Assembly: GCA_963803575.1 (NCBI GenBank)
Contig: CAWDMW010000002.1
Location: 886,389 to 950,388 of the forward strand
From: an uncultured Alphaproteobacteria bacterium
Lineage (GTDB): Bacteria; Pseudomonadota; Alphaproteobacteria; Rickettsiales; UBA998
Reading direction: 5' to 3'
DNA: 64,000 nucleotides
In this document: in pieces, positions 1,371 through 21,079 of the stretch
How positions within the stretch are numbered: the first letter of the stretch is position 1
Layout: each line of letters starts with the position of its first letter
Position numbers and translations under genes: made by a program
The notes under the pieces: model-generated
What the model saw: the letters and a program-made list of their open reading frames with translations, nothing else
What the model was told of the DNA's origin: nothing
The model's database searches: none

Positions 1371-2612
1371 ATGAAACTACAAAACAAACAACGTGACGCA
1401 CTAGAGAAAACAACACTTTCTCCAGACGCAATAACATTAACCTCTAACATTGAGTTTGCGGAGGAGCTGAAAGACCTTAAAGCCGCGCATGAGAGACGGC
1501 CTACGAAAGTCTATCTGGTGACGCTAGCCGCAGCCGCACTCTCGGGCTTTATGAGCGCACGGGGCATTATTGAGAAAACCATTGAAGCAGGCGTGATTGA
1601 TGAAGTCTCGATTGGCTCAGCAATTATGTCGGGCGCGGTGTGCTGTGCCTTGCTTACCACCGCCACGATGATGACATTTTCTATTGCGATGGAATCAGCA
1701 CGCAAGCAACGCTGGAAAGTGATTGCTCTGGTGACAACGCTGCTTGTTCCCACCATTGGTGTTAGCAGCTTCTATAGTCTGCTTGGCAATGCAGGAAGCG
1801 CGAGCCTTTCCTATAATATGCAGGATCAGGCGATTGCCCATCGTGAGTATTACGCTGCGTCAATACTGGATGCATCAGAAGCAAAAAGCCGTGCTGACGC
1901 GCTCATTCCGCTGCGTGATGATATTTGCACACGCGCTGATCAGGAGCGTCTCACAGGCCGCTACTCGGGGTCAAAGGGATACGGAAAAGCCGTGCAATCA
2001 ATGGATTCAGTCTGTTCTCAGATAACGTCAATTGTCGAGACGTTACTGAATACGGCATCGAACACCGAAGCACGGGGTAAGCAGGCAACAGAGATTTTAA
2101 ACAAGCTTGCCAGCATTGCCAAAGACCAGTCCATCGGTAATGTGTTTGAGCGTCAGGATGTGTATCGCGAAACGGCTAATCAACTTATGGAGTTGATTCA
2201 GACATTCTTATCCGAGAATGTTGTGGAGCGGCTGAATGTGCAGCTTGCTAATCTGCAAGCCTCTGTTTCTAGCTCTGGCGTACAGAAAAATACCTTTGGT
2301 CAGGTGCAATCAGCCATCATTGAGGATTTGCGCGTTCTTGTCGACAAGGTTGCTGAAAATCTTGAGGGCATGACCGATGTCAGTGATATGCCAAAGGCAA
2401 CGCCACCCGCACCATTAATGGATATGGGTGAAGCGGTGTTTCACTATTCGAGAAAGAACACTCCACAGTATTTGATGGCTTTGTTGCTTGATCTAATGGT
2501 TGTTTTTTATTGTGCGGCATTAACGCTATCTCGCTCGATTCCACAAGCCAGAAAAGAGGAAATGCTGGAATCACAGCCATCCTCTCAATCTTCAATAACT
2601 CAACAATCATAG
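1371..2612 (+). CDS. hypothetical polytopic membrane / coiled-coil protein (413 aa)
   Basis: GGAGGG upstream of the ATG. Three hydrophobic helices in residues ~45-150, a long helical middle, and one C-terminal TM (PQYLMALLLDLMVVFYCAALTL). The topology resembles DUF4407-type proteins, but this is unverified. Confidence 0.6.
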   Translation: MKLQNKQRDALEKTTLSPDAITLTSNIEFAEELKDLKAAHERRPTKVYLVTLAAAALSGFMSARGIIEKTIEAGVIDEVSIGSAIMSGAVCCALLTTATMMTFSIAMESARKQRWKVIALVTTLLVPTIGVSSFYSLLGNAGSASLSYNMQDQAIAHREYYAASILDASEAKSRADALIPLRDDICTRADQERLTGRYSGSKGYGKAVQSMDSVCSQITSIVETLLNTASNTEARGKQATEILNKLASIAKDQSIGNVFERQDVYRETANQLMELIQTFLSENVVERLNVQLANLQASVSSSGVQKNTFGQVQSAIIEDLRVLVDKVAENLEGMTDVSDMPKATPPAPLMDMGEAVFHYSRKNTPQYLMALLLDLMVVFYCAALTLSRSIPQARKEEMLESQPSSQSSITQQS

Positions 2613-2622
2613 GAGAATTATC

Positions 2623-3234
2623 ATGAGAAAATTACTTAATTATACGACGCGTATGGGCTTATCTGGTTTTAGCAATATGTTGCTTGCTGCGCTTGCAAGC
2701 AGCGTCGCTGTCACCTCTATCATATTGCTCAGCCTCTATGTCGTCTCATATGCCAAAGAGTCAGACGCGATGAAAGCACTGCAATGTGCATCAGGTCTGG
2801 TGTCTCGTCCTGATTGCCCAGATCAGCAGGCGGCTATGGATGCTTTGCAGCAAGAGTTGGACGCGTTAGCGGCGCAAAAGGAACAGATGGAGGCTAAGCT
2901 TGGTACGCTCAAGCGTATTAGCGATACGGTGGATTCCGTAACGTTGTTTAAAATGGTAGATATCGACGGAACGGGCATGAAACTGATAGTTGGATCGACG
3001 TATTCAGACTTGTTGAACCCCACTACAAAGCCGGCCTATCACTGCTATATAAGCTTGCGCGGCAATAGTTCGCACGGCAATAATACAGGTATTGAACGTA
3101 ACCTGTATATCCGTAGTGCTGTCGGTGATGTAGATATCACAAAGGACATGCTGCGTGACGCAGACATCACTGAATTTACGGTGCATTTTGCGCGGGCGCA
3201 TTGTAAGCCCTACCTCATTGGCGGCGCTGTATAG
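2623..3234 (+). CDS. hypothetical membrane-anchored coiled-coil protein (203 aa)
   Basis: AGGAG 8 nt upstream. N-terminal TM (MLLAALASSVAVTSIILLSLYVV), a coiled-coil stretch (QQELDALAAQKEQMEAKL), then a globular C-terminus. The stop is 2 nt before the next start. Confidence 0.6.
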   Translation: MRKLLNYTTRMGLSGFSNMLLAALASSVAVTSIILLSLYVVSYAKESDAMKALQCASGLVSRPDCPDQQAAMDALQQELDALAAQKEQMEAKLGTLKRISDTVDSVTLFKMVDIDGTGMKLIVGSTYSDLLNPTTKPAYHCYISLRGNSSHGNNTGIERNLYIRSAVGDVDITKDMLRDADITEFTVHFARAHCKPYLIGGAV

Positions 3235-3236
3235 CC

Positions 3237-5138
3237 ATGCGCAACAATTCCAAACAACATGGTGAGATTATTCGGCGGGGGTTTCCCTTGCCGAATATCT
3301 TGCTGGCAGCTGGTGCTTATGAGGTGATGGGCTGGCTGGGTGGTGACACGCATACTGTCATTCATCACGACACTATCATTATGCATTTGCCAGCCGCCGC
3401 CGCTGTAATCTGCATAGTCAATGTGCTGAGTATATCAGAATGGACGTTCAATCATCTGGCTGAGCGTATTGAGCTAAAACTGGCGCGAACGCCTATTGGC
3501 ATCAAAGGCACGGGGCGCTGGTCAACGCGCAAAGAAGCGTTGCGAATTTCACAGAAATATTATTGGGGGCCATATTTTGGTGCAATCTCTATGGGATGGT
3601 TCCGCCGTAATCGTGAACTGATTATTCCTTACGAATGCATGGCAACGACATTTGGCCCAAGCGGTAGCGGTAAAACAACGAAGGTGCTTCTCACCAATGC
3701 ATTCGCCTTAAAATATGAATCCAAGTTCCTGACAGATTTTAAATCTGACCTGACCTATCAGCTTTATCACCCGCTTTCAAAATACGGCGATGTGATTGTC
3801 CTCGATATTGGCGGTGAGTTTGATGGTCACCCCACCATTAAAACAGCCTACTATAATCCGTTATCATTGCCACTGGATTGTTTTGAACAAGCTGGCTGCC
3901 TTGTTGATGTTAAAGCTATGGTCGCAGAGTTGATTAATCAGCTCTATCCCATAAATGATAAAACACCCGATCCATACTGGCCTAACGGGGCGCGAGAGGC
4001 ATTACAGACGATTGTTATTTACGTTGTGATCCTACGGGATACGCAAGCGCATTTAGGGCATGTCGAGGCAATGCTTAATGACAGCGCGGCATTACTGGCT
4101 GATATGCGGTTTGCCGCAGGGTCATGTGTGAATGCAGAGGGTAACGCATTAGAGCCAATGGCGCTTGAGCAAACCTCGTGGGCATTATCAGGCCTTCATG
4201 ATCCTCAGGACGTAAGTAATTTTATCGCATGGTTTCGCCGTCGCGCTGCGGAGTTAGTAAAAATGCTATCAGCAACAGATACACGCACGATTGATTCATT
4301 CCTCTCAGGCGCACGGCAACAGCTCAGCGACTTTGCGGAAACGGGGCGATTATTCAGGGTCATGAATAAAACGTCGTTTCGGTTCTCACAGATGAAAGAA
4401 GGCGATCGTCCGACAACGGTGCTGATGCCTATTGATAGCACACGATTAGAAACCCAGAAGAAAGCTGCGGCATTATTGCAAAAATGCATGATCATTGAAT
4501 TGCAGCGTCACAAGAACAAACATCGTGAAGTGTATCTTTTACTGGACGAAATTTCTAATTTTCCGCTAACAGGCTTGGATACGCTGCCAACCTATTCACG
4601 CTCTTACGGATTAAGACTGCATCTGTTTCTACAAAACATTTCAGCTTACGCTCACCAGCACGGCGAACATGCGGCGCGTGTCATGGAGTCTGAAAGCGAA
4701 ATTTTCCAGTTTCTATCAGGCATTCGTGAAGAAAAAACGATCAAACTGGCGCAGCGTTTGATGGGTAATCGCTCAATCGTTACCAACAGCAACTCAGGTG
4801 ATCGTAGTGAATATGGCGTGAAAGGCACAGCGTACCGTGAGGATTCTATGCCTCTCATGGACGCAGAACAAATCCGTAGAACGCAACATACGCTGTTATT
4901 TGTGGGGCAGCATTACGGCATCATCAGCCAAGCGCCCACCATCTTCGAAGCACGCCCTTGGGGGCATGAGATAGATGCAAACCCGCATTACGGTACGAAA
5001 AAGAAGATTGATAAAGCCGTTCTTGTGATGGGTGATCGGTTGCCGCCAGTGCAGGTGCAGTGTTATTGGGTCGTCAAGCGTATCATCGCGATGCCATTCA
5101 CCATTCTGCGCTGGTGTCTCACAGGAGGCCGCGTATGA
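3237..5138 (+). CDS. type IV secretion coupling protein, VirD4/TraG family (633 aa)
   Basis: N-terminal TM helices, Walker A (GPSGSGKTTKVLL) and Walker B-like (EVYLLLDEISNF). YGLRLHLFLQNISAYAHQHGE matches the conserved T4CP block (rgyGi..Qs..QL...YG). Family-typical length. Confidence 0.85.
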   Translation: MRNNSKQHGEIIRRGFPLPNILLAAGAYEVMGWLGGDTHTVIHHDTIIMHLPAAAAVICIVNVLSISEWTFNHLAERIELKLARTPIGIKGTGRWSTRKEALRISQKYYWGPYFGAISMGWFRRNRELIIPYECMATTFGPSGSGKTTKVLLTNAFALKYESKFLTDFKSDLTYQLYHPLSKYGDVIVLDIGGEFDGHPTIKTAYYNPLSLPLDCFEQAGCLVDVKAMVAELINQLYPINDKTPDPYWPNGAREALQTIVIYVVILRDTQAHLGHVEAMLNDSAALLADMRFAAGSCVNAEGNALEPMALEQTSWALSGLHDPQDVSNFIAWFRRRAAELVKMLSATDTRTIDSFLSGARQQLSDFAETGRLFRVMNKTSFRFSQMKEGDRPTTVLMPIDSTRLETQKKAAALLQKCMIIELQRHKNKHREVYLLLDEISNFPLTGLDTLPTYSRSYGLRLHLFLQNISAYAHQHGEHAARVMESESEIFQFLSGIREEKTIKLAQRLMGNRSIVTNSNSGDRSEYGVKGTAYREDSMPLMDAEQIRRTQHTLLFVGQHYGIISQAPTIFEARPWGHEIDANPHYGTKKKIDKAVLVMGDRLPPVQVQCYWVVKRIIAMPFTILRWCLTGGRV

Positions 5139-5413
5139 CACCGATACGTTTTCGCTTTCAATATCGATGTGCAACATTCAGCCGCCTGATCAGCCAAATG
5201 ATTGGCTATTGGAAGCCACTCGCTATCGCTGCGTTCTTTGCCTCCAGTACAGGGCCGCACCTGCGTTTGAATGAATTGTACGATCGCCCATCTTACGGGC
5301 AGTGCCTGTATCTGGGATCACGCGGCGTGATTACGCATCAGGGCTTATCAGGGCATGGCTGCCCGTGGGTCGTCATTCTTAATTCTGACCATCAGAGAAA
5401 GTTTTATGAATGA
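5135..5413 (+). CDS. hypothetical small protein (92 aa), translationally coupled to the T4CP
   Basis: ATG 5135 overlaps the T4CP stop as ATGA. Its own stop overlaps the next start (ATGAATGA at 5406-5413). One hydrophobic segment (WKPLAIAAFFASS). The track lists a longer version from 5060. Confidence 0.5.
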   Translation: MTPIRFRFQYRCATFSRLISQMIGYWKPLAIAAFFASSTGPHLRLNELYDRPSYGQCLYLGSRGVITHQGLSGHGCPWVVILNSDHQRKFYE

Positions 5414-6092
5414 TAAAAAATCAGACCTACCCGATATCCGTTATGCGCATCCGTCCCACGCCGAATTCAATGCACGGCTGGCGGCAAAGAATGAGCCAAC
5501 GCCGCGTGACGTAACTGCGCCGTGGAGTCCGTCGCAGAATCTGCCCAACCTCAGACGCGACTTCGCGCAGCTCAACACCTATCTGCAACCTCGCTCGCAT
5601 ATCACAGAGCAAGATAATACAGATCAGCAACGCGGCTCCCGCATGGTCGAGGTCGATCATCTTGCGCCAACATTAGTGCCACCGCCTAATATCCGTGATC
5701 CCGTTGATCGTGAATCATTCGGAAGACGCTGGCTTCTCGAACAACGCGAAGCTGTGTTGGCGCAGGCGGTGATACCGCAGAACCAACAGCAGCGTGTCAA
5801 TACTCATCGGCAGCATAACCAACAATTTAACCACCACTCAGGAGAGTCTTTTATGACAGACCAAACAAGCACTCAAAACTCAAGTTCACCACAACTATCA
5901 CCGACACCAAATGCACCGCTGGAAACCTTCAAAGATGGCGCAGCCGTTATTAAGCTCTGGCAACAGGAAGGGCGCGATGGGCAAATCCACGTCAATGCAT
6001 CCGTCGGGCGCTTGTATAAGGATAATGAAACAGGGCAATGGAAAGAGAGTAAATCATTCAGCCCTCTGATCTTTCTAAGTTGGGCAACATGA
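5406..6092 (+). CDS. hypothetical Gln-rich protein; probably continues into 6080..6409 through a frameshift
   Basis: ATG 5406 overlaps the upstream stop. A possible internal start lies at 5855 (AGGAGA, 7 nt, ATG). It carries the motif REAVLAQA, which recurs as RDAVLAQA in the next ORF. Confidence 0.5.
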   Translation: MNDKKSDLPDIRYAHPSHAEFNARLAAKNEPTPRDVTAPWSPSQNLPNLRRDFAQLNTYLQPRSHITEQDNTDQQRGSRMVEVDHLAPTLVPPPNIRDPVDRESFGRRWLLEQREAVLAQAVIPQNQQQRVNTHRQHNQQFNHHSGESFMTDQTSTQNSSSPQLSPTPNAPLETFKDGAAVIKLWQQEGRDGQIHVNASVGRLYKDNETGQWKESKSFSPLIFLSWAT

Positions 6093-6409
6093 TGCCCAGA
6101 GCTTTGGCTCATGCTAGTGCGTTTGAGCATAACCTTAATGCACAACGTCAGGAACAAATGAAAGCACATGCGCAATCGCAGCAAACGCCTGCACCTGTTC
6201 AAGTCACGCCTGCTCAAGTCGTGCCAACGCTAACACAGCAGCAACAAGCACAACCACTCTCAGCCATGCGCTCGGATCAAATCGTAGCGCAGCAAGATAT
6301 GGTCGCTCAACGTGATGCGGTGCTGGCTCAGGCGCAACCAGCGCAAAGCCCGTCGCAGGAAAACACACAGGAGTATGCACACACCCAAAACCATGAACCA
6401 TCGCGCTAA
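6080..6409 (+). CDS. hypothetical Gln-rich protein, likely the 3' continuation of the preceding ORF
   Basis: It starts only at a TTG inside the previous ORF, with no RBS. Its frame is open from 6053, so it overlaps the end of the previous frame (stop at 6090-6092). Confidence 0.4.
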   Translation: MGNMMPRALAHASAFEHNLNAQRQEQMKAHAQSQQTPAPVQVTPAQVVPTLTQQQQAQPLSAMRSDQIVAQQDMVAQRDAVLAQAQPAQSPSQENTQEYAHTQNHEPSR

Positions 6410-6574
6410 GGAGGAACAGCGCGCTATATTAGTAATTATTCATAAAGTTGAATCACTTACGCGGAGTCATTTCTTGTAATTTAAGCCATTATAGGATAAT
6501 GTTCCTATTATGTTCTTGGGTGGAATAAGACGGAAATGACACCGCCGCACCAAAAAAGAAAGGAGAACATCACC

Positions 6575-6847
6575 ATGACAAAACAACAACCAACTCTTAC
6601 GATGGATATCGCATTATACGAGCATTTTCTTGAAAATAGCCATTATACTGAGGAAGAAAAGCAGGAATATCTGGAAACCATGTGGAACATCATCTGTGAG
6701 TTCGTCACGATGGGCTTCCATGTTCATCCTGTACAGATGGCACTTGATGATAATCAGCCCTCCTGTGGAAAACAGTCACAAACCACTGGAATCCCTATGG
6801 AAGCAGAGTCGCATAGGATAGAATCAACAGTAGAAGAAGGAGCGTAA
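6575..6847 (+). CDS. hypothetical small protein upstream of the recombinase (90 aa)
   Basis: AGGAGA at 6561-6566, 8 nt before ATG 6575. The stop is 3 nt before the recombinase start. No family recognised. Confidence 0.5.
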   Translation: MTKQQPTLTMDIALYEHFLENSHYTEEEKQEYLETMWNIICEFVTMGFHVHPVQMALDDNQPSCGKQSQTTGIPMEAESHRIESTVEEGA

Positions 6848-6850
6848 GCT

Positions 6851-8407
6851 ATGACAGAAGCAACAAAAGTCCTGATATATTGTCGTGTTAGCGATACTAA
6901 GCAGAAAACCGAAGGCCACGGATTAGACAGCCAAGAGCATCGCTGCCGTCAATATGCCGCAACACACGGCTATGAGGTCGAGCAAGTGTTTCCTGACGAT
7001 GCCAGCGGTGGAGGTGATTTCATGAAACGCGCTGGCATGGTTGCTTTGCTACGCTATCTTGATCAAAACCTCCACACCAATTATGTGGTGCTGTTCGATG
7101 ATCTGAAACGCTTTGCGCGTGATCGTGAGTTCCACTTCAAACTAAGACGTGAACTTGCTGCCAGAAGTGCCAACGTGGAATGTCTCAACTTCACATTCGA
7201 CGATACGCCTGAGGGTGAGTTTGTCGAAACCATCTTCGCCGCGCAAGGTCAGCTTGAACGATTGCAAAACCGCCGCCAAGTCATACAGAAAATGAAAGCC
7301 CGTATGGAGTTAGGCTATTATGTGTTTAATGCGCCGATTGGTTACGCTTACGACAAGGTTGCAGGGCATGGTAAATTGCTGGTTCGCGATGAACCGATTG
7401 CTAGTATTCTCCAGCAGGGGTTGGAGGGCTTCGCATCAGGACATTTTCAAACACAAGTCGAAGTGCAGCGTTTTTTCGAATCGAAGCCTGAGTTTCCCAA
7501 GAATAAGCAGGGTCGTGTGCATCCCTCCCGCGTGAAGGAAATTCTGACACATAGCCTGTATTCAGGCCATTTAGAGAAAGAAGAATGGAATTTATCCATG
7601 CGCAAAGGTTATCATGAGGGGCTGATAACATTAGAAACCTTCCAGAAGATACAGCATCGCCTGACGAAACAAGCTAAAGCGCCTGCACGTAAAGACATCA
7701 GCGCGGATTTCCCGCTACGTGGCTTTATCGAATGTGATCATTGTGACAGACCTATGACAGGGTACTGGGCGCAAGGTAAGTATAAGAAGTTTGCCTATTA
7801 TAGCTGCTACGATAAAAGCTGCGAGGGTCGTAAGAAAGCCATTCCACGCGCCAAACTAGAAGGTGAGTTTGAGGAAATGCTCGCAACATTACGACCATCA
7901 GAAGACTTGTTCAATGTCGCCAAAGCAATGTTTAAGGATGCGTGGGATCAGCAATATGCACAGACCGCTTCACTACTCAAAGCCACTAAGCATAAGGTGC
8001 TCGGCATTGAAAAGCAGATGGAGCAATTGCTGGATCGCATTATGGAGTCGTCCAACAGCACGGTTATCGGCAAATACGAGCAACGTATCAGCGAATTGGA
8101 GCACGAGAAACTAATTTGGGCAGAGAAAATGACCTCTCAGCCGCAAAAACACGGCACCTTCGAGGAAATGTTCGAACTCTCCATGAATTTTCTGCTTAAC
8201 CCGCAGAAACTATGGCAGTCCAGCCGTATTGAGCATAAGCGTGCAGTGCTAAAACTAGCCTTCGAAGACCGTATTCCATATCACCGTGACAAAGGACTTC
8301 GAACTCCAAAAACCACCATACCTTTCAGTATGTTAGCAGGTATTTGTGGAAATAATGTAGAAATGGTGGGCGATGAGAGACTCGAACTCCCGACATCCTC
8401 GGTGTAA
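6851..8407 (+). CDS. large serine recombinase (518 aa)
   Basis: Resolvase catalytic N-terminus (VLIYCRVSDTKQ ... FDDLKRFARD), a recombinase domain, a Cys cluster (CDHCDRPMTGYW...YYSCYDKSCEGR) and a coiled-coil tail. The last 14 codons are antisense tRNA-Val sequence. Confidence 0.85.
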   Translation: MTEATKVLIYCRVSDTKQKTEGHGLDSQEHRCRQYAATHGYEVEQVFPDDASGGGDFMKRAGMVALLRYLDQNLHTNYVVLFDDLKRFARDREFHFKLRRELAARSANVECLNFTFDDTPEGEFVETIFAAQGQLERLQNRRQVIQKMKARMELGYYVFNAPIGYAYDKVAGHGKLLVRDEPIASILQQGLEGFASGHFQTQVEVQRFFESKPEFPKNKQGRVHPSRVKEILTHSLYSGHLEKEEWNLSMRKGYHEGLITLETFQKIQHRLTKQAKAPARKDISADFPLRGFIECDHCDRPMTGYWAQGKYKKFAYYSCYDKSCEGRKKAIPRAKLEGEFEEMLATLRPSEDLFNVAKAMFKDAWDQQYAQTASLLKATKHKVLGIEKQMEQLLDRIMESSNSTVIGKYEQRISELEHEKLIWAEKMTSQPQKHGTFEEMFELSMNFLLNPQKLWQSSRIEHKRAVLKLAFEDRIPYHRDKGLRTPKTTIPFSMLAGICGNNVEMVGDERLELPTSSV

Positions 8408-8439
8408 ACGAGGCGCTCTACCAACTGAGCTAATCGCCC
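8364..8439 (-). tRNA. tRNA-Val (anticodon UAC), CCA encoded
   Basis: The reverse complement folds by hand as GGGCGAT-TA-GCTC-AGTTGGTA-GAGC-G-CCTCG-TTTACAC-CGAGG-ATGTC-GGGAG-TTCGAGT-CTCTC-ATCGCCC-A-CCA. That is 76 nt with a canonical cloverleaf and TAC in the anticodon loop. Confidence 0.9.
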
Positions 8440-8473
8440 GCAAGTTCCAGCCATAATGCTAAGAACACTTGGA

Positions 8474-8502
8474 GGCGCAAGAAACACGATTATTCTTGCG
8501 CC
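8474..8502. terminator. 10-bp perfect hairpin between hupB and tRNA-Val
   Basis: ggcgcaagaa (8474-8483) / ttcttgcgcc (8493-8502) with a 9-nt loop. No clear U-tract on either strand, so its role as a terminator is uncertain. Confidence 0.3.
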
Positions 8503-8518
8503 GTCAAGCAAAAAGTGG

Positions 8519-8818
8519 TTACGCAGCTTTGGTATCTTCAAGGTTACCATTTACAGCATCTTTAAGCTGTTTGCCTGGCTTAAATTTTGGCAATTTTGAT
8601 GCCGCGATCTGGATGGTTTCGCCTGTACGAGGATTGCGTCCTTCTGTGGCTTTGCGTTCTGCCACGCTGTATGTTCCGAAGCCTACCAGACGTACTTCAT
8701 CACCATCTACCAGTGCGTTAGTGATTGCTTCACAAAAAGCATCCACGGCTTTAACGGCATCTTGTTTATTGAAATCAGCAATGTCAGCAATTGCTGCAAC
8801 CAGTTCGTTTTTGTTCAT
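8519..8818 (-). CDS. hupB: DNA-binding protein HU (99 aa)
   Basis: MNKNELVAAIA...RNPRTGETIQIAASKLPKFKPGKQLKDAV is a classic HU/IHF fold signature. The true ATG is at 8816-8818; the 201-aa track ORF is an upstream extension. Confidence 0.9.
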   Translation of the reverse strand: MNKNELVAAIADIADFNKQDAVKAVDAFCEAITNALVDGDEVRLVGFGTYSVAERKATEGRNPRTGETIQIAASKLPKFKPGKQLKDAVNGNLEDTKAA

Positions 8819-8993
8819 AGTACAGTCTCCTATAGGGTTTTTGAACGTTATTACATGACGCAGGCGCCATGCCATAGAGTAAGTCGTAGCATAAGCATGG
8901 AAAAGGAACCATGTAAAACGATTTTTGCGTGCTTTAGATAAAAAATCCCATTTTTCAGCTACTTTAGGATTTTCATGCTTCATCTGAAGCAGG

Positions 8994-10238
8994 TTAAGCG
9001 CCCAGTTCCTGGCTTGCCATAGCGGTAGCCTGGCGTTGTTGCAGCACGGCTGCGGTATGGTTGCCAAGCGCGTTTGGATCACGCTCCTGACCTTGCATAG
9101 GCTCAGTGGAAGCACTCGCAGCATCTATGGATGTTGACGGGGTGCGAGAATAGGCCACAATATTATTCTCGCCCTGCATCTTATTAATATTAGCGCCATA
9201 CATAATGTCATTGCGTGTAAGTGTGTAAGCTGCTTCCGCGCCGCCCATTTCCAGTGCAACAGTATCTAGTGTGACCAAACGTGTTGGAACGACTGCACCA
9301 ATATTGGTTTCGTAAGCAAGCTGACGAGATGCATCCAGTAAGCCGGGATGGTATGTCTCTAATAAGTCTGCCTGTTCAAACTCTGCCAGTTCGCTGAACT
9401 TTTTTCCACCCGTTTGAGCAGAGATTTTTTTCTGTAATTCTTTATCGCTGGCTTTAAGAACGTTAAACACGTCAATGGAATTAACGGGCTGTCGATTATC
9501 CAGTTTTCGTTGCATAGCCTCCAGTTCGTCATAGGCTGAATCGTTTGGATCTAAGCCGGTCATAGCTGTCATAGCTTTGTTAGCAACGTTTGAAGCCACC
9601 ATACTACCAACAATTGATGAACCAAGCCATAATGCACCACCTGCCCAACCTACAGGTGTGGCGCTTAATACAGCTCCGGCAACCACTGGCATAAGTGCAG
9701 CTCCTGCTGCTGATCCGCCAAATCCTGCTGCTGTACCGCCAACGCTACGCATCAGTTTCTGGTCAATTTTTTGCACTTCTGTGCGTAACTGTTCCTGATC
9801 CGGACGCTCTGACAGCAAACGCAAATGATCCGCTGTTGCTTCTTCCGGTTTAACGCCAAGCTCTTGTACGATGTCCGCCAAATGAAGACGCGTCAGCTTC
9901 TCCATGGATTTTTCGCTGTCTTTATTGCCACGTACACCGGAGATTAGTAAACTAGCTGCTTTACCGGCTGTACCGATTACAGGGGTTACGCCTAGAACTT
10001 TTGAGCCATATTCTGCAGCAATAGAACCTGTATATTGTACGCCATTAAACACAGCTTCCCCTGCGCCATACTTCACCAGATCGGCTTCAGCTTTGCGCTT
10101 ATCCTGATAAAGCCCAAGCAACTCCTGCTGTTGCAAACGTTGCGGAGCGATGGCGGGTGCAGCCATATGACTGGCATTGACGGCGCCATTAGCCATTGGG
10201 GGGAGTGCTTGTGGATGTGTTAAGGTAGCTGTTGTCAT
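8994..10238 (-). CDS. hypothetical protein (414 aa) with a Gly/Ala-rich double hydrophobic segment
   Basis: Start at MTTATL (ATG 10236-10238), preceded by GGAGGA and 4 nt after the upstream TAA. Residues ~165-226 read VGGTAAGFGGSAAGAALMPVVAGAVLSATPVGWAGGALWLGSSIVGSMVASNVA. No signal peptide and no family recognised. Confidence 0.7.
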   Translation of the reverse strand: MTTATLTHPQALPPMANGAVNASHMAAPAIAPQRLQQQELLGLYQDKRKAEADLVKYGAGEAVFNGVQYTGSIAAEYGSKVLGVTPVIGTAGKAASLLISGVRGNKDSEKSMEKLTRLHLADIVQELGVKPEEATADHLRLLSERPDQEQLRTEVQKIDQKLMRSVGGTAAGFGGSAAGAALMPVVAGAVLSATPVGWAGGALWLGSSIVGSMVASNVANKAMTAMTGLDPNDSAYDELEAMQRKLDNRQPVNSIDVFNVLKASDKELQKKISAQTGGKKFSELAEFEQADLLETYHPGLLDASRQLAYETNIGAVVPTRLVTLDTVALEMGGAEAAYTLTRNDIMYGANINKMQGENNIVAYSRTPSTSIDAASASTEPMQGQERDPNALGNHTAAVLQQRQATAMASQELGA

Positions 10239-10242
10239 GATC

Positions 10243-11913
10243 TTACAATCCTCCAATAGCACGTTGCATGTCCTGCAAACGTCCATCTGGTTGCATGTGT
10301 GTCAGCATGGTTGTGTCTGGTGCTACGTCCTGCGTCACTGTTGCGCCAAGAGCGCCACGTTTCAGATGGTGCTGCGTTTCTGCAATGCGCCCTGATGTGA
10401 TTTCTTCCATTAAGGCCGCTGGCGTAAGCTGTTGTTCAACGTAGTGGTCAGCCAACTTCATCACATCCGGATGCTCAGGCCCTACTTTGTTGAGTGCTGG
10501 TGAACCCATTACTAACAGCAAAGACGCCATATCACCTGTCAGGCGACCACCGTTGCTTTTGTAGGCTTCACGCACGTCATGGTACGTATCCATAAGCGGA
10601 TCATGGGGCATAACACGATCCAGCAATTGTCCGGCAATCATCGGAGCCGCCATGACCATCATCATACCTCCACCCATCGCACTACGATCAGAATAATTAT
10701 TCGCCATCGTTACCGCTATAGCATCACTGACTAATGACATAGCCGCAGCGGGTGCCATCTTTCCAAGCATACCGTCACGGGCACGTATCACCGCTTCGGG
10801 TGCGTTTTTATCAAACATGGCATCAAACATGCCTGCCTGATCGTTACCTGTCATATCCTGATACAGATCGGTGATTTGTTCCATTTTATGGGCAAACTTG
10901 CTGATCGTGCGAATATCACGAATGGCGGCACCTGCATAAAGCGAGCCTTTATACGCCGTTTCGTAGATATTGTGGCTATCCATAACGTTATGCAGCTTGT
11001 CTGGTGCATTGGCAATAGATTCGCCCATCTGATCGCGTCCAAGACGGTTGCTCACAAAATCTCCGGCCTTATCAGCTAATCCTTTGATGCCATCACCAAA
11101 CTTTTCACCGAGTGATGACTCTGTACCGCTCAATGACTCGCCTGCATTATCCAAACCATCCACAATCTTTTGACGTAGTCCGGGAGCTGAATCAGTGGCA
11201 GCGGTTTGAATAAACTCTTTAGCTTCTTGTGACTGATGTAAGTTTTCTAACGTAAGCATACCGCCAGACGCATCTTTTACCACTTCGCTAGCAGACGCGA
11301 GAGATGCTGTTCTTGCTTCCTGCGCTGCTTCCCGAAATTCTGCTCGGGCTTCCTGCAAACGGGTACTATCCGTACGTAGAATGGTAGAAACCTGCTCTTT
11401 CACATGATTTAATGCTTGTGAAGGCAAATGATGCATATCTGACACGTTAGATGCACGAAAAGCGTTAAACGGTGCCATCAAACTTTTGGAAGCAACACCT
11501 AAGCCGTTGCTGATGCCCTGACCTGTGCTGGCCATCTTATCACCAGCATTTTGTAATATCTCTAAATTAGTAAAGCCACCAATGCCACCAACAACCGACC
11601 CACTAACATTTCCAATGCCGCTAATCAGTCCGCCAAACATTTTCGTGACTAATCCGGCAATCATTGGCATTCCGGCAATACGCATGGGGGTACCAACAAA
11701 CGATTGCACACCAGATAAAGCGCCACCTGTTTGTGCCAAAGTCTGGCTTGCACGTGCAACATTGCCTGCTCCGGCAACCGCAGTATTCGCGACCATTGCG
11801 CCCCCTACATTTGCACCTTGCAAGCCAGACATAGCTGTCTTGGCTGCCTGCATCTCTGCTTGAGGATTGGCTGCTAAGGTGTTTAGTACAGTTTGTGCGC
11901 CTGGAGGAGGCAA
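10243..11913 (-). CDS. hypothetical protein (555 aa) with Gly-rich N-terminal and internal Met/Gly-rich hydrophobic segments
   Basis: TTG start at 11911-11913, with GGAG 6 nt upstream. Residues ~31-114 are Gly/Ala/Val-rich (MRIAGMPMIAGLVTKMFGGLISGIGNVSGSVVGGIGGF). Residues ~384-431 read MAPAAAMSLVSDAIAVTMANN..GGGMMMVMAAPMIAGQLL. The middle is helical and charged. Confidence 0.7.
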   Translation of the reverse strand: MPPPGAQTVLNTLAANPQAEMQAAKTAMSGLQGANVGGAMVANTAVAGAGNVARASQTLAQTGGALSGVQSFVGTPMRIAGMPMIAGLVTKMFGGLISGIGNVSGSVVGGIGGFTNLEILQNAGDKMASTGQGISNGLGVASKSLMAPFNAFRASNVSDMHHLPSQALNHVKEQVSTILRTDSTRLQEARAEFREAAQEARTASLASASEVVKDASGGMLTLENLHQSQEAKEFIQTAATDSAPGLRQKIVDGLDNAGESLSGTESSLGEKFGDGIKGLADKAGDFVSNRLGRDQMGESIANAPDKLHNVMDSHNIYETAYKGSLYAGAAIRDIRTISKFAHKMEQITDLYQDMTGNDQAGMFDAMFDKNAPEAVIRARDGMLGKMAPAAAMSLVSDAIAVTMANNYSDRSAMGGGMMMVMAAPMIAGQLLDRVMPHDPLMDTYHDVREAYKSNGGRLTGDMASLLLVMGSPALNKVGPEHPDVMKLADHYVEQQLTPAALMEEITSGRIAETQHHLKRGALGATVTQDVAPDTTMLTHMQPDGRLQDMQRAIGGL

Positions 11914-12146
11914 GGTGAACTCCTATGTTCAAGGTAATATATCAACTATTAGTATACCGCAAAGTCGCTCTATGGTTTAGTGCTATTATATGAAGTTTTG
12001 ATGACGGGCTTATTTGAAGAAATCTAACGTATGTTCTAAAGCAAGAATTCCTTAGAATACATACGAAATGCCAACTCTTGCCATTTCTTGTGCAGCGTGT
12101 CATAGTGCCTAAAAATATTATACTATCTCAATAACAGGTATATTGC

Positions 12147-12551
12147 ATGGAAACGCTTGAAGAACTTTGTCAGCGTATGGGCTTAAAAATGACGGAGCAA
12201 CGCCGCATTATTGCGCGTGTGCTGTCTGACGCAAGTGACCACCCTGATGTGGAAACCCTGTATCAGCGTGCCAGCATTGTGGATAGCAACATTAGCATTG
12301 CCACAGTGTATCGTACCGTTAAATTGCTGGAAGAAGCAGGTATCATTGCCCGTCATGACTTTGGTGACGGCAAAGCGCGTTATGAAACTACGTCTGATGA
12401 CCATCATGACCACCTGATTGACGTACGTTCCGGGAAGATTATTGAATTTACTAATGAAGAGATTGAACGATTACAGGAAATTGTGGCAAAAGAGTTAGGG
12501 TACAAATTGGTAGGGCATAAGCTTGAACTCTATGGACTACCTTTAGAATAA
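12147..12551 (+). CDS. fur: Fur-family regulator, alphaproteobacterial Mur/Fur type (134 aa)
   Basis: TEQRRIIARVL, HPDVETLY, SIATVYRTVKLLEEAGIIARHDFGDGKARYE, HHDHLIDVRSGKIIEF, LELYGLP. It lacks the CxxC pairs, as rhizobial Mur does. Confidence 0.85.
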   Translation: METLEELCQRMGLKMTEQRRIIARVLSDASDHPDVETLYQRASIVDSNISIATVYRTVKLLEEAGIIARHDFGDGKARYETTSDDHHDHLIDVRSGKIIEFTNEEIERLQEIVAKELGYKLVGHKLELYGLPLE

Positions 12552-12634
12552 AGCGTGATAACAGTCATAAATGCCCGCTGCAACACTTAGGGTGCTGTCA
12601 TGAAACTGTCATCATGCGCTGATACCATATAGTC

Positions 12635-13840
12635 ATGAATGCTGTAGCACGTCCAGATACGCTTGTATCAGCGAATGATCGTACCTACGCCAGATTGCAG
12701 GATAACCATCCATCTATGCAAAAAGGCGAAGTAGCTACCGCTGAAGAATCACTGCCGTCTATACGTTTGCAACGGGTCAAGGCGGAAGATAGTAAAGAAG
12801 GTCTGCACATCCCTTTTCTGAACGTATCTGTCGATATGGGGCAGTTTCTAACGCAATATAACTCATTGCGTACCACATGTTACGTGGCTCAGGCGCTCTT
12901 CCCTATCGTAACCAACTATTTTCAGCATCGCCAGGACGGCAATGCTGGCGCGATGTCGCTGACAGATCATCGTCAAGCTATCGTCGATCAATATAATGAT
13001 ACGCCAGTTGATGTAAGCAATGCGGTTATCTCAAACTATTTGAGGGCAGAAAGTACTATCTTTGCTGGTATGGCAGTATCTTACGGTGCAATGGAAGTTC
13101 AAAAATTAATGGAAGACTCTAAAGTTGCGCTCGCACTCGAATATGACAAACCGCAGGATGAAGTGACGCTGGGCGACTTAATGCATTCAGAGAATCCAAT
13201 GGTTCAATCGCATTTTCGCCTGTCTTGCTTAAAGAACGCTGTACGAGCCGTTAGCGGTTCCGGGTTTGCATTCAATCTGGAAGCGGGACTTGTCGGGATT
13301 GCTGTTGATATTGGTTTGGAACGTACCGTATTTGCAGCAAAAACCAGCTATGACAAGCTTAAGCATGTGATTAATCATGCACAAACTAACGCGCATTCAG
13401 GCAATGCTGCATGTGAAATAATGGCCAATGATTTGCAGGAAGTAATGCAATTAATGCGGGAAAATCAGGGGAAAGTACATGTATGTCAGCATGACATGCT
13501 GAAACTCCGTGATGTCACCGAAATGATTGCGGATGACGTCTTAAAGCAGGTGATGAGTATTGAAGATATGATCGCAGTGATGGGGGGAGGGATCATCAAC
13601 CCTGATGATCCGAATCAGTCTATGGAAAACTATCAGGTGTTTCGTTCGCAAAAACTACAATCTCCTGACGTGTGTCATCGTATATTGGAGCAACCGTCTC
13701 CCCCCTTGCCTGTAGCACATGCCGCTTCACCGGAAATTGCTTCACCGGAGGTGAGCCAACATCGTCATGAATATCGTGACAAGCTCATGAATGACCGAGC
13801 CAATTTAAATCATTTTGAACCTATTACCTATTATCGTTAA
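12635..13840 (+). CDS. hypothetical protein (401 aa)
   Basis: Long ORF with only a short shadow overlapping it. No signal peptide and no recognisable family. No obvious RBS at 12635, so the start is uncertain. Its last ~85 codons and 3' flank form repeat copy A. Confidence 0.6.
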   Translation: MNAVARPDTLVSANDRTYARLQDNHPSMQKGEVATAEESLPSIRLQRVKAEDSKEGLHIPFLNVSVDMGQFLTQYNSLRTTCYVAQALFPIVTNYFQHRQDGNAGAMSLTDHRQAIVDQYNDTPVDVSNAVISNYLRAESTIFAGMAVSYGAMEVQKLMEDSKVALALEYDKPQDEVTLGDLMHSENPMVQSHFRLSCLKNAVRAVSGSGFAFNLEAGLVGIAVDIGLERTVFAAKTSYDKLKHVINHAQTNAHSGNAACEIMANDLQEVMQLMRENQGKVHVCQHDMLKLRDVTEMIADDVLKQVMSIEDMIAVMGGGIINPDDPNQSMENYQVFRSQKLQSPDVCHRILEQPSPPLPVAHAASPEIASPEVSQHRHEYRDKLMNDRANLNHFEPITYYR

Positions 13841-13969
13841 GCTGCAAATGTATAGCAGCCAGTGTTTCACTTAACGGTGAAGCATACACTTTTCTTTCTC
13901 CAACAACTGAACATGCAAAACGTTGTCATTCTCGTTTTTATGCACTCTTAAACAGGGCTTAGTAATAAT
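13577..13969 (+). repeat. repeat copy A (full length): segment P 13577-13619 plus segment R 13871-13969, with 251 nt of unique sequence between them
   Basis: Hand alignment to 14704-14851. P has 3 mismatches and a 1-nt indel in ~43 nt. R has 4 mismatches in 99 nt. Confidence 0.85.
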
Positions 13970-14133
13970 CATGCAAGAATGTGGCTGTATGGATTAATCC
14001 TACTGTAGCGGCTGGCGGAATCTGGTGGGTTTCTAGTGAGCCTAGCAGCCGGGTGCAGACCCAGCGTTTTTAGCAATTCCATTGTTGACATGGTTTCTGA
14101 AACGGAAGAAAGCGAAGCTAGATTAGCAACCAT

Positions 14134-14180
14134 AAATAGATAAATAGCAGGGTGTTATTACCCCTGCTATTTATCTATTT
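14134..14180. terminator. 19-bp perfect hairpin overlapping the stop of the amidase fragment
   Basis: aaatagataaatagcaggg (14134-14152) / ccctgctatttatctattt (14162-14180) with a 9-nt loop. The stem is AT-rich with a GC cap and has no clean U-tract. It is a candidate bidirectional terminator between convergent genes. Confidence 0.4.
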
Positions 14181-14722
14181 AACGCTGTTTCTGGTTTTCG
14201 TACATCCGGAGTTACGGGTGGGGTGAAAGATGTGTCTATGGCAACATCCTGACCAGCAGGATTTACGGAAGAAGAGTTGGATGCTGAAACTTGAGATGTT
14301 TCCTGTTGATATCCACGTGTTTTAGCAAAAGAAGCAATACCTTGCGCTACGGCATTACTATATTGATCAATAAAATCAGGATGTTGAATTTTTTTCAAAT
14401 CTTCGGGATGATCAACAAATCCACCTTCAAGAACAATTAAAGGGCGATCATCTGCATTGTGATCTTTAAAAGCGGTTAATTCTTTCACGGCCGTTTGACT
14501 CTCATGCTCAATACGGCGTACATCGTAATTCTGTGATTTTATATTAGCACCAATCGATTTAGCTAATGCTTCGCTGCCTTTGCCATCACCAAAAAATATT
14601 TCTAATCCCTTTGCCTGACCTTCATGCATGTTATTATGTACAGTAATAAAAATAGCTGCGTCTATGTCATTCGCATGGGCTACACGCTTGCGTATTTCGA
14701 ATGGTAATGGGGGAGGAATCAT
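14171..14722 (-). pseudogene. N-acetylmuramoyl-L-alanine amidase (amidase_3 family), 5'-truncated
   Basis: It retains RVAHANDIDAAIFITVHNN...GLEIFF...PLIVLEGGFVDHPED, the second half of the amidase_3 core. The N-terminal GHGG/Glu metal-ligand block is missing. Its ATG and first ~6 codons lie inside repeat copy B. Confidence 0.6.
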
Positions 14723-14851
14723 TAACCCTGATGATCCGAATCAGTTTGCTGTTTAACGGTGAAGCATGCATTCTTCTTTCTCTAACAACTGAACATGCAA
14801 AACGTTGTCATTCTCGTTTTTATGCACTCTTAAACAGGGCTTAGTAATAAT
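14704..14851 (+). repeat. repeat copy B (deleted version): P' 14704-14745 joined to R' 14753-14851
   Basis: Direct repeat of copy A that lacks the 251 nt between P and R. The junction reads cagtttgctgtttaacgg. Confidence 0.85.
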
Positions 14852-14986
14852 ATAGTACGACACCATACCGACCATTAAGGCAAACGCAGCACTAAAGAGA
14901 AATTTTGGTATGTGTGACAAGAGCGTTGTTATATCATCATCATTATTCTTTGAACTTTGCATTTGCTTGGTACCACCTATCATCAC
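14753..14986 (-). other. 77-aa chimeric ORF, possibly the orphaned N-terminal membrane anchor of the disrupted amidase
   Basis: The first ~45 aa are unique and hold one TM (FLFSAAFALMVGMVSYYII). The last 33 aa are encoded by repeat R', and the same reading frame exists in copy A. Confidence 0.25.
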
Positions 14987-15099
14987 AATACTTTAAAGAA
15001 TGTATACTGTACAAACAATAGATTGTTGCTCTATTAATATTCTGGATGACATTTGCAAAATGCTTGCAAAGCCTAGTTATTCCCTATACAGCAGAATCT

Positions 15100-16398
15100 A
15101 TGCGTTATTCACATCTATTTATTCCCCTCATTAAAGAGAATCCTTCCGAAGCAAAGGTTGTATCTCACAGGCTTATGTTGCGCTCTGGTATGGTCAGACA
15201 ACATTCTGCCGGTATTTATAGCTGGCTGCCACTGGGGTTACGTGTGTTGGAACGCATCTCTGGGATTATTCGCGAGGAATTAAATGCGATTGGTGCGGCA
15301 GAACTACTCATGCCAAACATGCAACCTGTTGAGTTATGGGAGGAATCCGGGCGGGGATGTTACGGCGACGAGACGCTGAAAGCCGTAGATCGTCATAAAC
15401 GCACCCTGATTTACGGGCCTACGCATGAGGAAATGATTACCGATTTATTTCGTCGTCATGTGAAAAGTTATAAGTCGCTACCAATGAATCTGTATCAGAT
15501 ACAATGGAAATTTCGTGATGAAATACGCCCGCGTTTTGGTGTGATGCGTGGACGGGAATTCCTGATGAAAGATGCCTATACGTTTTCTGAAGATGCCGCC
15601 AGCCATCAGGCATTATATGACACAATGTATGCCACGTATTTTAAAATTTTCCGCAGGATGGGACTCAAAGCCATTCCGTTTAAGGCAGATTCCGGGCAGA
15701 TTGGTGGAGATCAGAGCCATGAGTTTCAGGTAGTGGCTGAGACGGGCGAGAGTGACATTTATTATGATAAGGTATTGGAAGCGCTGACCTCAACAGACAC
15801 TTTGGATATTGACGCGATACGCACGCATTATTCGGCGACTGACGAAAAGCATGACCCCGCACAATGCACGGTTCCAGATGACCAACTAGTTAAAGCACGT
15901 GGCATTGAAGTCGGGCATATTTTTTATTTCGGTGATAAATATTCTAAACCGATGAAAGCGATGATTCGCAATAGCGAGGGGCAGGAAGTACCTGTCATGA
16001 TGGGCGCTCATGGCATTGGTGTGTCACGTCTGGTTGCCGCGATCATTGAAGTGCATCATGACGATAAGGGCATTAATTGGCCAGAAGCAGTGGCTCCTTT
16101 CTACGCAGGTATCGTCAATATCCGTCAGGGGGATGAAGCGTGTGATGCGCTATCAGAGGCAATCTATCAGCAATTGCAAAGGGCAGGGGTTGATGTATTG
16201 TATCATGATACAGATGATCGCGCTGGTGCTAAGTTTGCTGCTATGGAACTGATTGGCTTGCCTTGGCAGATTACGGTAGCACCAAAGCTGATTGCTGAGA
16301 ATAAGATAGAATTGAAGTGCCGTGCAACAGGTGACATAGAGATTATCTCTTCTGACGCACTGATAGAACGTATGACGTCACCCTCTCAAAAGTCGTAA
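15100..16398 (+). CDS. proS: prolyl-tRNA synthetase, short form without the insertion/editing domain (432 aa)
   Basis: MRYSHLFIPLIKENPSEAKVVSHRLMLRSGMVRQ, motif 2 (RPRFGVMRGREFLMKDAYTF) and motif 3 (GIGVSRLVAAIIE). Start taken at the conserved MRYS; the track ORF starts 18 codons earlier. Confidence 0.9.
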   Translation: MRYSHLFIPLIKENPSEAKVVSHRLMLRSGMVRQHSAGIYSWLPLGLRVLERISGIIREELNAIGAAELLMPNMQPVELWEESGRGCYGDETLKAVDRHKRTLIYGPTHEEMITDLFRRHVKSYKSLPMNLYQIQWKFRDEIRPRFGVMRGREFLMKDAYTFSEDAASHQALYDTMYATYFKIFRRMGLKAIPFKADSGQIGGDQSHEFQVVAETGESDIYYDKVLEALTSTDTLDIDAIRTHYSATDEKHDPAQCTVPDDQLVKARGIEVGHIFYFGDKYSKPMKAMIRNSEGQEVPVMMGAHGIGVSRLVAAIIEVHHDDKGINWPEAVAPFYAGIVNIRQGDEACDALSEAIYQQLQRAGVDVLYHDTDDRAGAKFAAMELIGLPWQITVAPKLIAENKIELKCRATGDIEIISSDALIERMTSPSQKS

Positions 16399-20964: not shown

Positions 20965-21079
20965 GTATCTGAGTATACCCGATGAACATGACAGTTTCAT
21001 GACGTTGGATATACTTAAATCCCTATATTCCATAAGTAGGTAAACAGAAATATTAACTATTATTCTATAAAATATAATA

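Follow-up and report, generated by a model that had tools for sequence, protein, structure and literature searches.

A translationally coupled gene pair of a Rickettsiales genome with relatives embedded in gene transfer agent-type tail clusters

What is encoded by two adjoining genes that lie between fur and hupB and whose large products match no known protein family? This question is raised by a stretch of 64,000 nucleotides (the window) of contig CAWDMW010000002.1 (positions 886,389 to 950,388, forward strand) from an uncultured alphaproteobacterium of the Rickettsiales. A preliminary description, made from the sequence alone, had presented the products of these genes, here named A and B, as orphan proteins with hydrophobic hairpins that resemble secretion system translocator pairs. 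We found that the pair is conserved in other genomes and that, in five divergent loci, members of the A family, with or without B, are located within head-tail clusters of the type found in the gene transfer agent (GTA) of Rhodobacter capsulatus (RcGTA). The pair and the linked gene families X and Y represent an accessory module, not described before, that is associated with tails of GTAs or of the phage type; any function can only be proposed, and we claim no membership in a known family. As a tentative interpretation, which we prefer to the alternatives discussed below, A and B may be a hetero-oligomeric membrane-inserting pair that serves a function of GTA-like particles under the control of a PhoB-type regulator.

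The gene pair and its relatives

The pair is defined by the following features.

10243 to 11913, minus strand: gene A, TTG start, 556 codons (protein A556), read from the sequence
8994 to 10238, minus strand: gene B, ATG start, 414 amino acids (protein B414), read from the sequence
10249 to 10254, minus strand: GGAGGA, the Shine-Dalgarno sequence of B, within the final codons of A and 10 nt ahead of the ATG of B

An AGGAG is found 6 nt 5' of the TTG of gene A. The TAA of gene A (10243 to 10245) is followed by GATC (4 nt) and then by the ATG of gene B (10236 to 10238), and direct reading thus reproduced the coupled arrangement that had been described initially. In GC content and codon usage, both genes are like the core genes of the window, and no paralogues of A or B were detected in the window.

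Word-indexed searches with A, with B, and with a profile of 28 A sequences retrieved only the query itself. In contrast, when 1.84 billion representatives were scanned exhaustively with HMMER, 55 relatives of A were identified at an E value of ≤1e-3, 13 of them at ≤1e-10. The null results of the word-indexed searches are false negatives, exposed by the exhaustive scan and by the neighboring genes, and a word index evidently fails on such Gly/Ala-rich sequences. The relatives of A have 400 to 770 amino acids and share 22 to 34% identity (aligned region, ~250 to 520). All are annotated as "hypothetical protein" or are nameless, and they originate from rare metagenome-assembled genomes labeled Rickettsiales or Alphaproteobacteria bacterium. 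No further family loci emerged from two scans of metagenomes and one of viral sequences, and a literature search returned no description of A, B, or their relatives.

We inspected the genomic context of 12 of the ~55 members of the A family. A homologue of B is found next to A in all loci with readable flanks except L089 and L172, and it is located directly downstream of A in L082 to L085, L087, L088, L090, and L171. B414 and its counterpart in L083 are 39.6% identical over their full length (E = 2e-80), and a hidden Markov model (HMM) of the B family matches the partners in L090 (6e-21), L171 (2e-21), and L088 (3e-7); the partner genes themselves have no Pfam match. The designation "orphan" therefore has to be abandoned, given the 55 relatives of A and the partner homologue of B, and the view that both genes are real is borne out by their maintenance as an adjoining pair in other genomes. 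In five other loci (L082, L083, L084, L087, and L090), A and B overlap or are separated by no more than 4 nt, and this conserved tight coupling argues for a stoichiometric A-B complex. Two deviating arrangements were also noted. Locus L084 contains a second, divergent B-like gene (13817 to 15088, minus strand; B-family HMM, E = 2e-9) that is convergent to the A-B pair, and in L089 an A homologue of 681 amino acids (10001 to 12603) is followed by an unrelated gene of 153 amino acids in place of B.

Hydropathy analysis confirmed that both proteins possess Gly/Ala/Met-rich hydrophobic hairpins. In A, a first hydrophobic block covers residues 71 to 114 inside a Gly-rich region (residues 31 to 115), and a second one covers residues 383 to 435 and contains GGGMMMVMAAPMIAG. 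In B, residues 165 to 216 form a bilobed hairpin of 52 residues that are free of charged and polar-amide residues and are split by SATPVG; a weaker hydrophobic block is present at residues 81 to 102. The earlier statement that a Sec-type N terminus is lacking also holds, in that hydropathy, which was used here without a signal-peptide predictor, revealed no signal-like hydrophobic N-terminal region in A or B. Protein A is composed of the N-terminal Gly-rich hydrophobic region, a variable coiled-coil-like center, and a conserved C-terminal domain (residues ~330 to 530) that holds the second hairpin, and in B the hairpin is followed by a conserved helical domain. With an alignment of 59 sequences, AlphaFold2 predicted an all-helical A protein, with predicted local distance difference test (pLDDT) values of 93 to 98 at residues 340 to 380 and 440 to 520. 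In this model, the confidently predicted C-terminal domain wraps the hydrophobic hairpin, and the N-terminal 140 residues are of low confidence; the prediction made without an alignment (pLDDT of 38) was of no use. A hydrophobic hairpin buried in a helical bundle is the design of the colicin channel domain, the Bcl-2 family, and the diphtheria toxin T domain. The predicted C-terminal part of A, with ~9 helices around its Gly/Ala/Met-rich hairpin, would be similar to these pore-forming bundles, but the likeness is architectural only and Foldseek returned no match to them.

Both families start with conserved Pro/Ala-rich N termini, and A and B have C-terminal motifs in common, namely, QGRxxEPQxxxG-type tails and GxHTxxL. 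The comparison of A with B by hhalign gave an E value of 7.6e-4 and a probability of 25%, and family Y shows a weak alignment in the corresponding "G-[KV]-[DK]-P...hairpin" region. These weak profile matches suggest that the C-terminal domain of A, B, and Y may have a common core consisting of a helix, G-[KV]-[DK]-P, and a hairpin. Within gene B, a 20-nt tandem-like repeat (TCCTGCTGCTGATCCGCCAA / TCCTGCTGCTGTACCGCCAA, 9702 to 9742) encodes a GG(T/S)AAG repeat where the hairpin starts.

None of the searches placed these proteins in a known family, in agreement with the initial failure to recognize a motif in either of them. (i) Pfam and NCBIfam contained no match for A or B (E ≤ 0.1), and matches among their relatives were not informative. 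(ii) The PHROGs gave only two isolated weak matches, each to a single member, with families of unknown function. (iii) In the PDB, searches by sequence or profile gave only generic coiled-coil matches to the variable middle of A. (iv) A tblastn search of 50,697 phage records found nothing. (v) A Foldseek search of the A model against the PDB and BFVD gave nothing below an E value of 0.27; the top BFVD matches, which are not significant, are tape-measure and minor tail proteins. For Y, as for A and B, there was no match in Pfam, NCBIfam, PHROGs, PDB, or BFVD beyond weak or generic ones.

Copies embedded in GTA clusters and the tape-measure question

The five loci that contain A within RcGTA-type head-tail clusters are the P0020 locus, L088, L090, L171, and L172. 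The embedded block comes after the genes for the tail tube and the chaperones and lies 50 to 73 nt upstream of g12. It is followed by g12 (DUF2460), g13 (Phage_BR0599), a DUF2335 gene, the g14 peptidase gene (seen in L090), and g15 (GTA_TIM). The order within the module is X (533 to 915 amino acids), Y (336 to 373 amino acids) or another gene, A, and B, and conserved genes on the opposite strand are located just upstream. In two of these loci, the block is accompanied by a SUEL-lectin gene. The g12 and g13 products of L088 and L090 are 54 to 59% identical, whereas the A proteins of the same loci barely align, indicating that the linkage between A and g12 is old and that A evolves fast. The link to phage-type tails is positional and not one of homology.

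Such linkage was observed in these five loci only and is absent from the window and from six other loci with free-standing pairs. The free-standing pairs (the window and L082 to L087) lie amid unrelated housekeeping genes, and A and B are the sole genes that these loci have in common. In a crude, unrooted neighbor-joining tree, the free-standing pairs with B, including that of the window, form one clade, and the embedded copies are scattered over the rest. In L083, a cysE-like gene (8833 to 9909) precedes A and could be a vestige of a lost GTA cluster; RcGTA clusters in Rhodobacterales have been reported to be flanked by cysE (PMC5026251). The window carries Y, A, and B around fur and lacks X, its Y gene being the following.

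12635 to 13840, plus strand: C401, 401 amino acids, family Y, assigned by phmmer homology to gene Y of the embedded block

In this comparison, C401, which lies beyond fur and had looked like a further orphan, matched L172 (8727 to 9737) with an E value of 1e-19, and a further match was obtained with L088 (8771 to 9892).

Where this type of g12/g13 occurs in phage loci, a genuine tape-measure protein is encoded before g12, and the slot normally holds a protein of the tail lumen. Its occupation by the module raises the possibility that A and/or B serves a GTA or prophage as the tail tape measure, as a g11 that has diverged or been split. Tape-measure proteins are typically helical and contain Gly-rich hydrophobic segments, and A and B share with them (lambda-like siphophage gpH and RcGTA g11) the long helical make-up, the Gly-rich hydrophobic segments, the fast evolution, and the location between the tail chaperones and a distal-tail gene. 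In addition, no canonical g11 was detected in L090 and L171, which contain B, and the nonsignificant BFVD matches mentioned above point in the same direction. However, L172, which lacks B, retains upstream of its X-Y-A genes a canonical tape-measure gene encoding 200 amino acids, which matches the NCBIfam family RcGTA_tape over its full length (E = 8e-11), is a homologue of L095_197, and has the GERGPE motif. Furthermore, a comparison of profiles by hhalign with 50 real tape-measure proteins resulted in a probability of 0.1%, and none of 28 family members matched the Pfam tape-measure families Tape_meas_lam_C, TMP_3, and PhageMin_Tail, nor were there NCBIfam or PHROG tape-measure matches. The tape-measure proteins that are paired with this g12/g13 type end in an ARAxxxGRR(G/N)(M/L) tail, which is absent from the C termini of A and B. 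Sequence, profile, and fold searches thus did not detect the homology to tape-measure proteins that the preliminary description had named as a finding that would count against its proposal. The block also differs in comprising two to four genes instead of one and in the conserved globular helical domain at the C terminus of A, and there are no tail genes near the copy in the window. We therefore rejected the assignment of A and B as tape-measure proteins, since L172 has such a gene as well, the profile comparison fails, and the C-terminal tail is absent; a role of this kind appears highly improbable.

A direct-repeat promoter element

The elements upstream of A and C401 and a similar promoter elsewhere in the window are as follows.

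11990 to 12007, minus strand: direct repeat CCGTCAT-CAAA-ACTTCAT, Pho-box-like, upstream of A
11951 to 11956, minus strand: TATACT, likely -10 hexamer of the A-B promoter, 32 nt past the repeat
12595 to 12612, plus strand: perfect Pho box CTGTCAT-GAAA-CTGTCAT, followed by 10 nt, TACCAT, 6 nt, and the ATG of C401
19714 to 20964, minus strand: orphan gene, 416 amino acids; box ACGTCATGAAACTGTCAT (ACGTCAT-GAAA-CTGTCAT, 2 mismatches) at 20988 to 21005, followed by 10 nt, TATACT, 7 nt, and the ATG

The repeat upstream of A conforms to the consensus TCAY-N7-TCAY, which can also be written as (G/T)TCAY-N6-(G/T)TCAYA, and its spacer in the A-B promoter is A rich. This repeat precedes A or X in 10 promoters; it is found ahead of A in the loci with free-standing pairs, ahead of X in L090 and L171, and also ahead of A in L090. 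A matrix built from ten sites recovered sites that had not been used for its construction, located in L088 ahead of both A and X, in L085 within the 107 nt that separate A from B, and in L089 ahead of an M23 peptidase gene and of an orphan gene (228 amino acids). A hexamer of the TATACT/TATAAT type follows the motif at a distance of 31 to 33 nt in five loci or 21 nt in two loci. The conserved second half of this A-type box is an 11-mer, AAAACTTCATA, that occurs once in the window. In L171, CTGTCAT-AAAA-CTTTCAT, 10 nt, and TATGAT are found ahead of X-A-B-g12.

The PHO box consists of two 11-nt direct repeat units with a CTGTCAT core (PMC4415409). The repeat upstream of A resembles this box and has the layout of a binding site for regulators of the OmpR/PhoB family, one of which would be predicted to act here. 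The promoters of the Pho regulon (PMC4415409) are matched most closely at C401, where the perfect box, for which the chance expectation in the window is ~5e-4 (128,000 positions × 4^-14), lies 10 nt from a -10-like hexamer; the spacing of box, hexamer, and ATG implies a leaderless-type promoter. The same spacing of 10 nt is seen at the gene at 19714 to 20964. The A-B promoter shares with these the TCAY-N7-TCAY arrangement but differs in the second half of its box, in its agreement with the Pho consensus (10 of 14 positions), and in the larger distance (32 nt) to the best -10 hexamer.

Other candidate regulators were considered. A CtrA box (TTAA-N7-TTAA) is absent upstream of A in the window. 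In L084 and L087, where fliQ is divergent from A, the fliQ side of the shared intergenic region has a CtrA-type TTAA box, whereas the A side has the TCAY box; A and fliQ are thus not co-regulated, and we rejected the A element as a CtrA site. The response regulator encoded next to A in L085 is CopR/CusR-like, with a match below the cutoff, and does not identify the regulator of A-B. No phoB, phoR, or pst genes were found in the window or the related loci.

The Pho-type promoter at 20988 to 21005 implies that an open reading frame (ORF) listed with 470 amino acids really starts at 20964 and encodes the 416-amino-acid protein mentioned above. Near its N terminus, this protein has a Gly/Met-rich hydrophobic block similar to the one in A, and the gene that follows (18717 to 19685) encodes a CHAP-domain protein (peptidoglycan hydrolase). 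In addition, perfect TGTCAY-N5-TGTCAY boxes were noted in L084 (5086 to 5102) and L089 (2709 to 2725); the genes behind them (L084, 5151 to 6581, 476 amino acids; L089, 2784 to 4676, 630 amino acids) have no Pfam match and are unrelated to A, B, X, and Y. Taken together, these sites suggest a regulon that may be composed largely of lineage-specific proteins.

The nature of these putative target genes is consistent with a different role of the pair. A and B might be envelope or inner-membrane proteins, anchored by their hairpins, that belong to a phosphate-starvation-type regulon and have no role in GTA particles. They would act in the envelope of the producer, for example, in remodeling or controlled permeabilization, together with peptidoglycan hydrolases, and their presence in GTA clusters would stem from an old island insertion that also provided the tail genes with a promoter. 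In support of this possibility, boxes precede the 416-amino-acid orphan with the CHAP gene behind it, the 228-amino-acid orphan and the M23 peptidase gene of L089, and the two orphans of L084 and L089 with perfect boxes. The location of the free-standing pairs among housekeeping genes, the core-like codon usage of A and B, and the fact that the embedded block has its own promoters and opposite-strand companions fit as well. On the other hand, the spot right before g12 has been kept across lineages despite A having become nearly unrecognizable, and neutrality is hard to invoke in such a compact and conserved cluster. We consider an exclusive envelope role somewhat less likely than the role in GTA particles that is preferred here.

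Surroundings of the pair, secretion, and a possible role in GTA particles

The genomic surroundings of the pair in the window comprise the following features.

12147 to 12551, plus strand: fur, upstream of the pair
8519 to 8818, minus strand: hupB, on the downstream side
8364 to 8439, minus strand: tRNA-Val, on the downstream side
1371 to 8407: integrative element beside tRNA-Val, with a large serine recombinase gene (6851 to 8407) whose 3' end overlaps the 3' end of tRNA-Val
3237 to 5138: TraG/VirD4-type coupling protein of type IV secretion systems (T4SS), within the integrative element, across tRNA-Val from the pair

These coordinates verify the reported location of the pair between fur and hupB. 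The accompanying notion that core genes usually occupy this place upstream of hupB did not hold: hupB was next to fur in none of 80 alphaproteobacterial Fur loci, so that there is no conserved interval for comparison, and Fur-anchored synteny in these 80 genomes revealed no A, B, or C401 beside fur. A search with Rfam over positions 8000 to 15200 identified only tRNA-Val. The integrative element contains several Q/P-rich or unmatched ORFs (1371 to 3234 and 5355 to 6847); since the window has no second copy of the tRNA-Val 3' end, the far boundary of the element lies outside it. On the other side of the pair, direct repeats of 99 nt (13871 to 13969 and 14753 to 14851, 96%) and 37 nt (13583 to 13619, in C401, and 14709 to 14745) bracket a truncated Amidase_3 gene (14171 to 14722, minus strand), and a perfect 20-nt inverted repeat is present at 14133 to 14181. 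The segment from 13583 to 14851 has the appearance of a local duplication or rearrangement by which the amidase gene was disrupted.

The preliminary description had compared A and B with translocators. As such, or as effectors, they might be secreted as a pair and insert into the membrane of a host or target cell; their Sec-independent export would be by a type III secretion system (T3SS), possibly the flagellar apparatus, by a T4SS, or by another system. With the T3SS translocators SctE/SctB (IpaB/IpaC and YopB/YopD), the pair shares the adjoining larger and smaller genes, the coiled coils with internal hydrophobic helices, and the lack of a Sec signal; with Inc-type and effector proteins, it shares only the bilobed 52-residue segment of B. 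The conserved Pro/Ala-rich N termini of both families agree with this view, as do the C-terminal motifs common to A and B, which could be export or docking signals, and the SUEL-lectin gene beside two of the embedded blocks. Genes of export systems also occur near some of the copies, namely, fliQ divergent from A in L084 and L087, a flagellin gene 0.9 kb after B in L085, fliP at a distance of 8 kb in L089, and VirB8 at 10 kb from the pair in L084. However, neither protein matches a translocator or effector family in Pfam or NCBIfam (E ≤ 0.1; including SseC/YopB, IpaB, IpaC/SipC, and YopD), and no class II (tetratricopeptide repeat) chaperone gene adjoins the pair, fur being located upstream on the opposite strand. 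The coupling protein of the integrative element is the only component of a secretion apparatus in the window, which also lacks flagellar genes, and no injectisome genes were seen in the window or in 11 related loci. In L084 and L087, the different boxes argue against a co-regulation of A with fliQ. Finally, the genome encodes tryptophan synthesis, the pyruvate dehydrogenase complex, and a TRAP transporter and is thus not like that of an obligate intracellular parasite. Hence, the physical description of a coupled large and small pair of helical hairpin proteins without a Sec-type start stands, but the analysis found no link to a T3SS, a T4SS, or a type I secretion system, and we regard a role as translocators or effectors as unlikely.

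The interpretation that we prefer is that of a membrane-inserting pair serving GTA-like particles. Inferred here are the entry into membranes, the assembly into a complex, the type of regulator, and every function in GTAs. In this scheme, a PhoB-type (OmpR-family) response regulator would bind to the upstream direct repeat and switch on A-B, so that A556 and B414 would be produced together from one coupled operon. The long helical proteins would most likely form a hetero-oligomer that enters the lipid bilayer via glycine-zipper-type hydrophobic hairpins. A, B, and Y (C401), together with X elsewhere, would constitute a lineage-specific gene set that in sister lineages has been built into the tail half of RcGTA-type clusters, between g11 (or its position) and g12. 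As a membrane-active accessory of phage-tail-like particles, the pair may permeabilize or bridge a membrane for the passage of DNA on entry; a role in particle release is a less likely alternative. The copy in the window would then be a separate locus, as is the case for several RcGTA genes.

GTA function depends on genes that are spread over several loci (PMC5026251). Similar to the present case, the accessory loci of this "multilocus genome" of RcGTA contain needed genes that can be distant from the head-tail cluster and can evolve fast, and such genes can also be co-regulated with the cluster (PMC5026251). None of the RcGTA accessory genes (head spikes, tail fibers, endolysin-holin, and gafA) resembles A, B, X, or Y, and a co-regulation with GTA genes and a GTA function of the present genes would be by analogy. 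As for a phosphate-dependent control, the concentration of phosphate reportedly modulates the release of RcGTA (Westbye et al. 2013).

Several observations weigh against this interpretation. (i) The regions up to 10 kb from the free-standing pairs and the entire window are devoid of GTA genes. (ii) The sequences, profiles, and fold of A and B do not resemble any phage or GTA protein. (iii) The embedded block, with promoters and opposite-strand companions of its own, could be an island that landed in a GTA cluster. (iv) The GTA-embedded loci, identified among the 12 contexts viewed for the ~55 family members, may share one ancestral insertion. (v) The A-type box agrees with the Pho consensus in 7 to 13 of 14 positions, with the window copy in the middle of this range, and its regulator could be another protein of the OmpR family.

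A more far-reaching version, which we consider rather unlikely as a whole, is that a clade of alphaproteobacteria has given its RcGTA-type particles a membrane-penetrating hairpin set of their own (X, Y, A, and B), with a phosphate-starvation promoter shared with the tail-tip genes. Such particles might cross or open membranes without the competence machinery of the recipient. In the lineage of the window, the module would have become detached and been retained, either to serve a GTA from a remote locus or to act by itself as a membrane-permeabilizing system under phosphate control.

For the search of similar families, the results imply that word-indexed searches miss low-complexity Gly/Ala-rich relatives and that "orphan" calls for such proteins need an exhaustive scan. 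Whatever the function, the protein families newly defined here (A, B, Y, and X, three or four in number) and their shared regulatory motif turn genes annotated as "hypothetical" into testable ones. Among alphaproteobacteria, gene exchange by way of GTAs is widespread, and the passage of their DNA through membranes and their release are only partly understood. If the link between the module and the particles is functional, it would add an unknown class of components to GTAs and would tie their tail genes to the sensing of phosphate.

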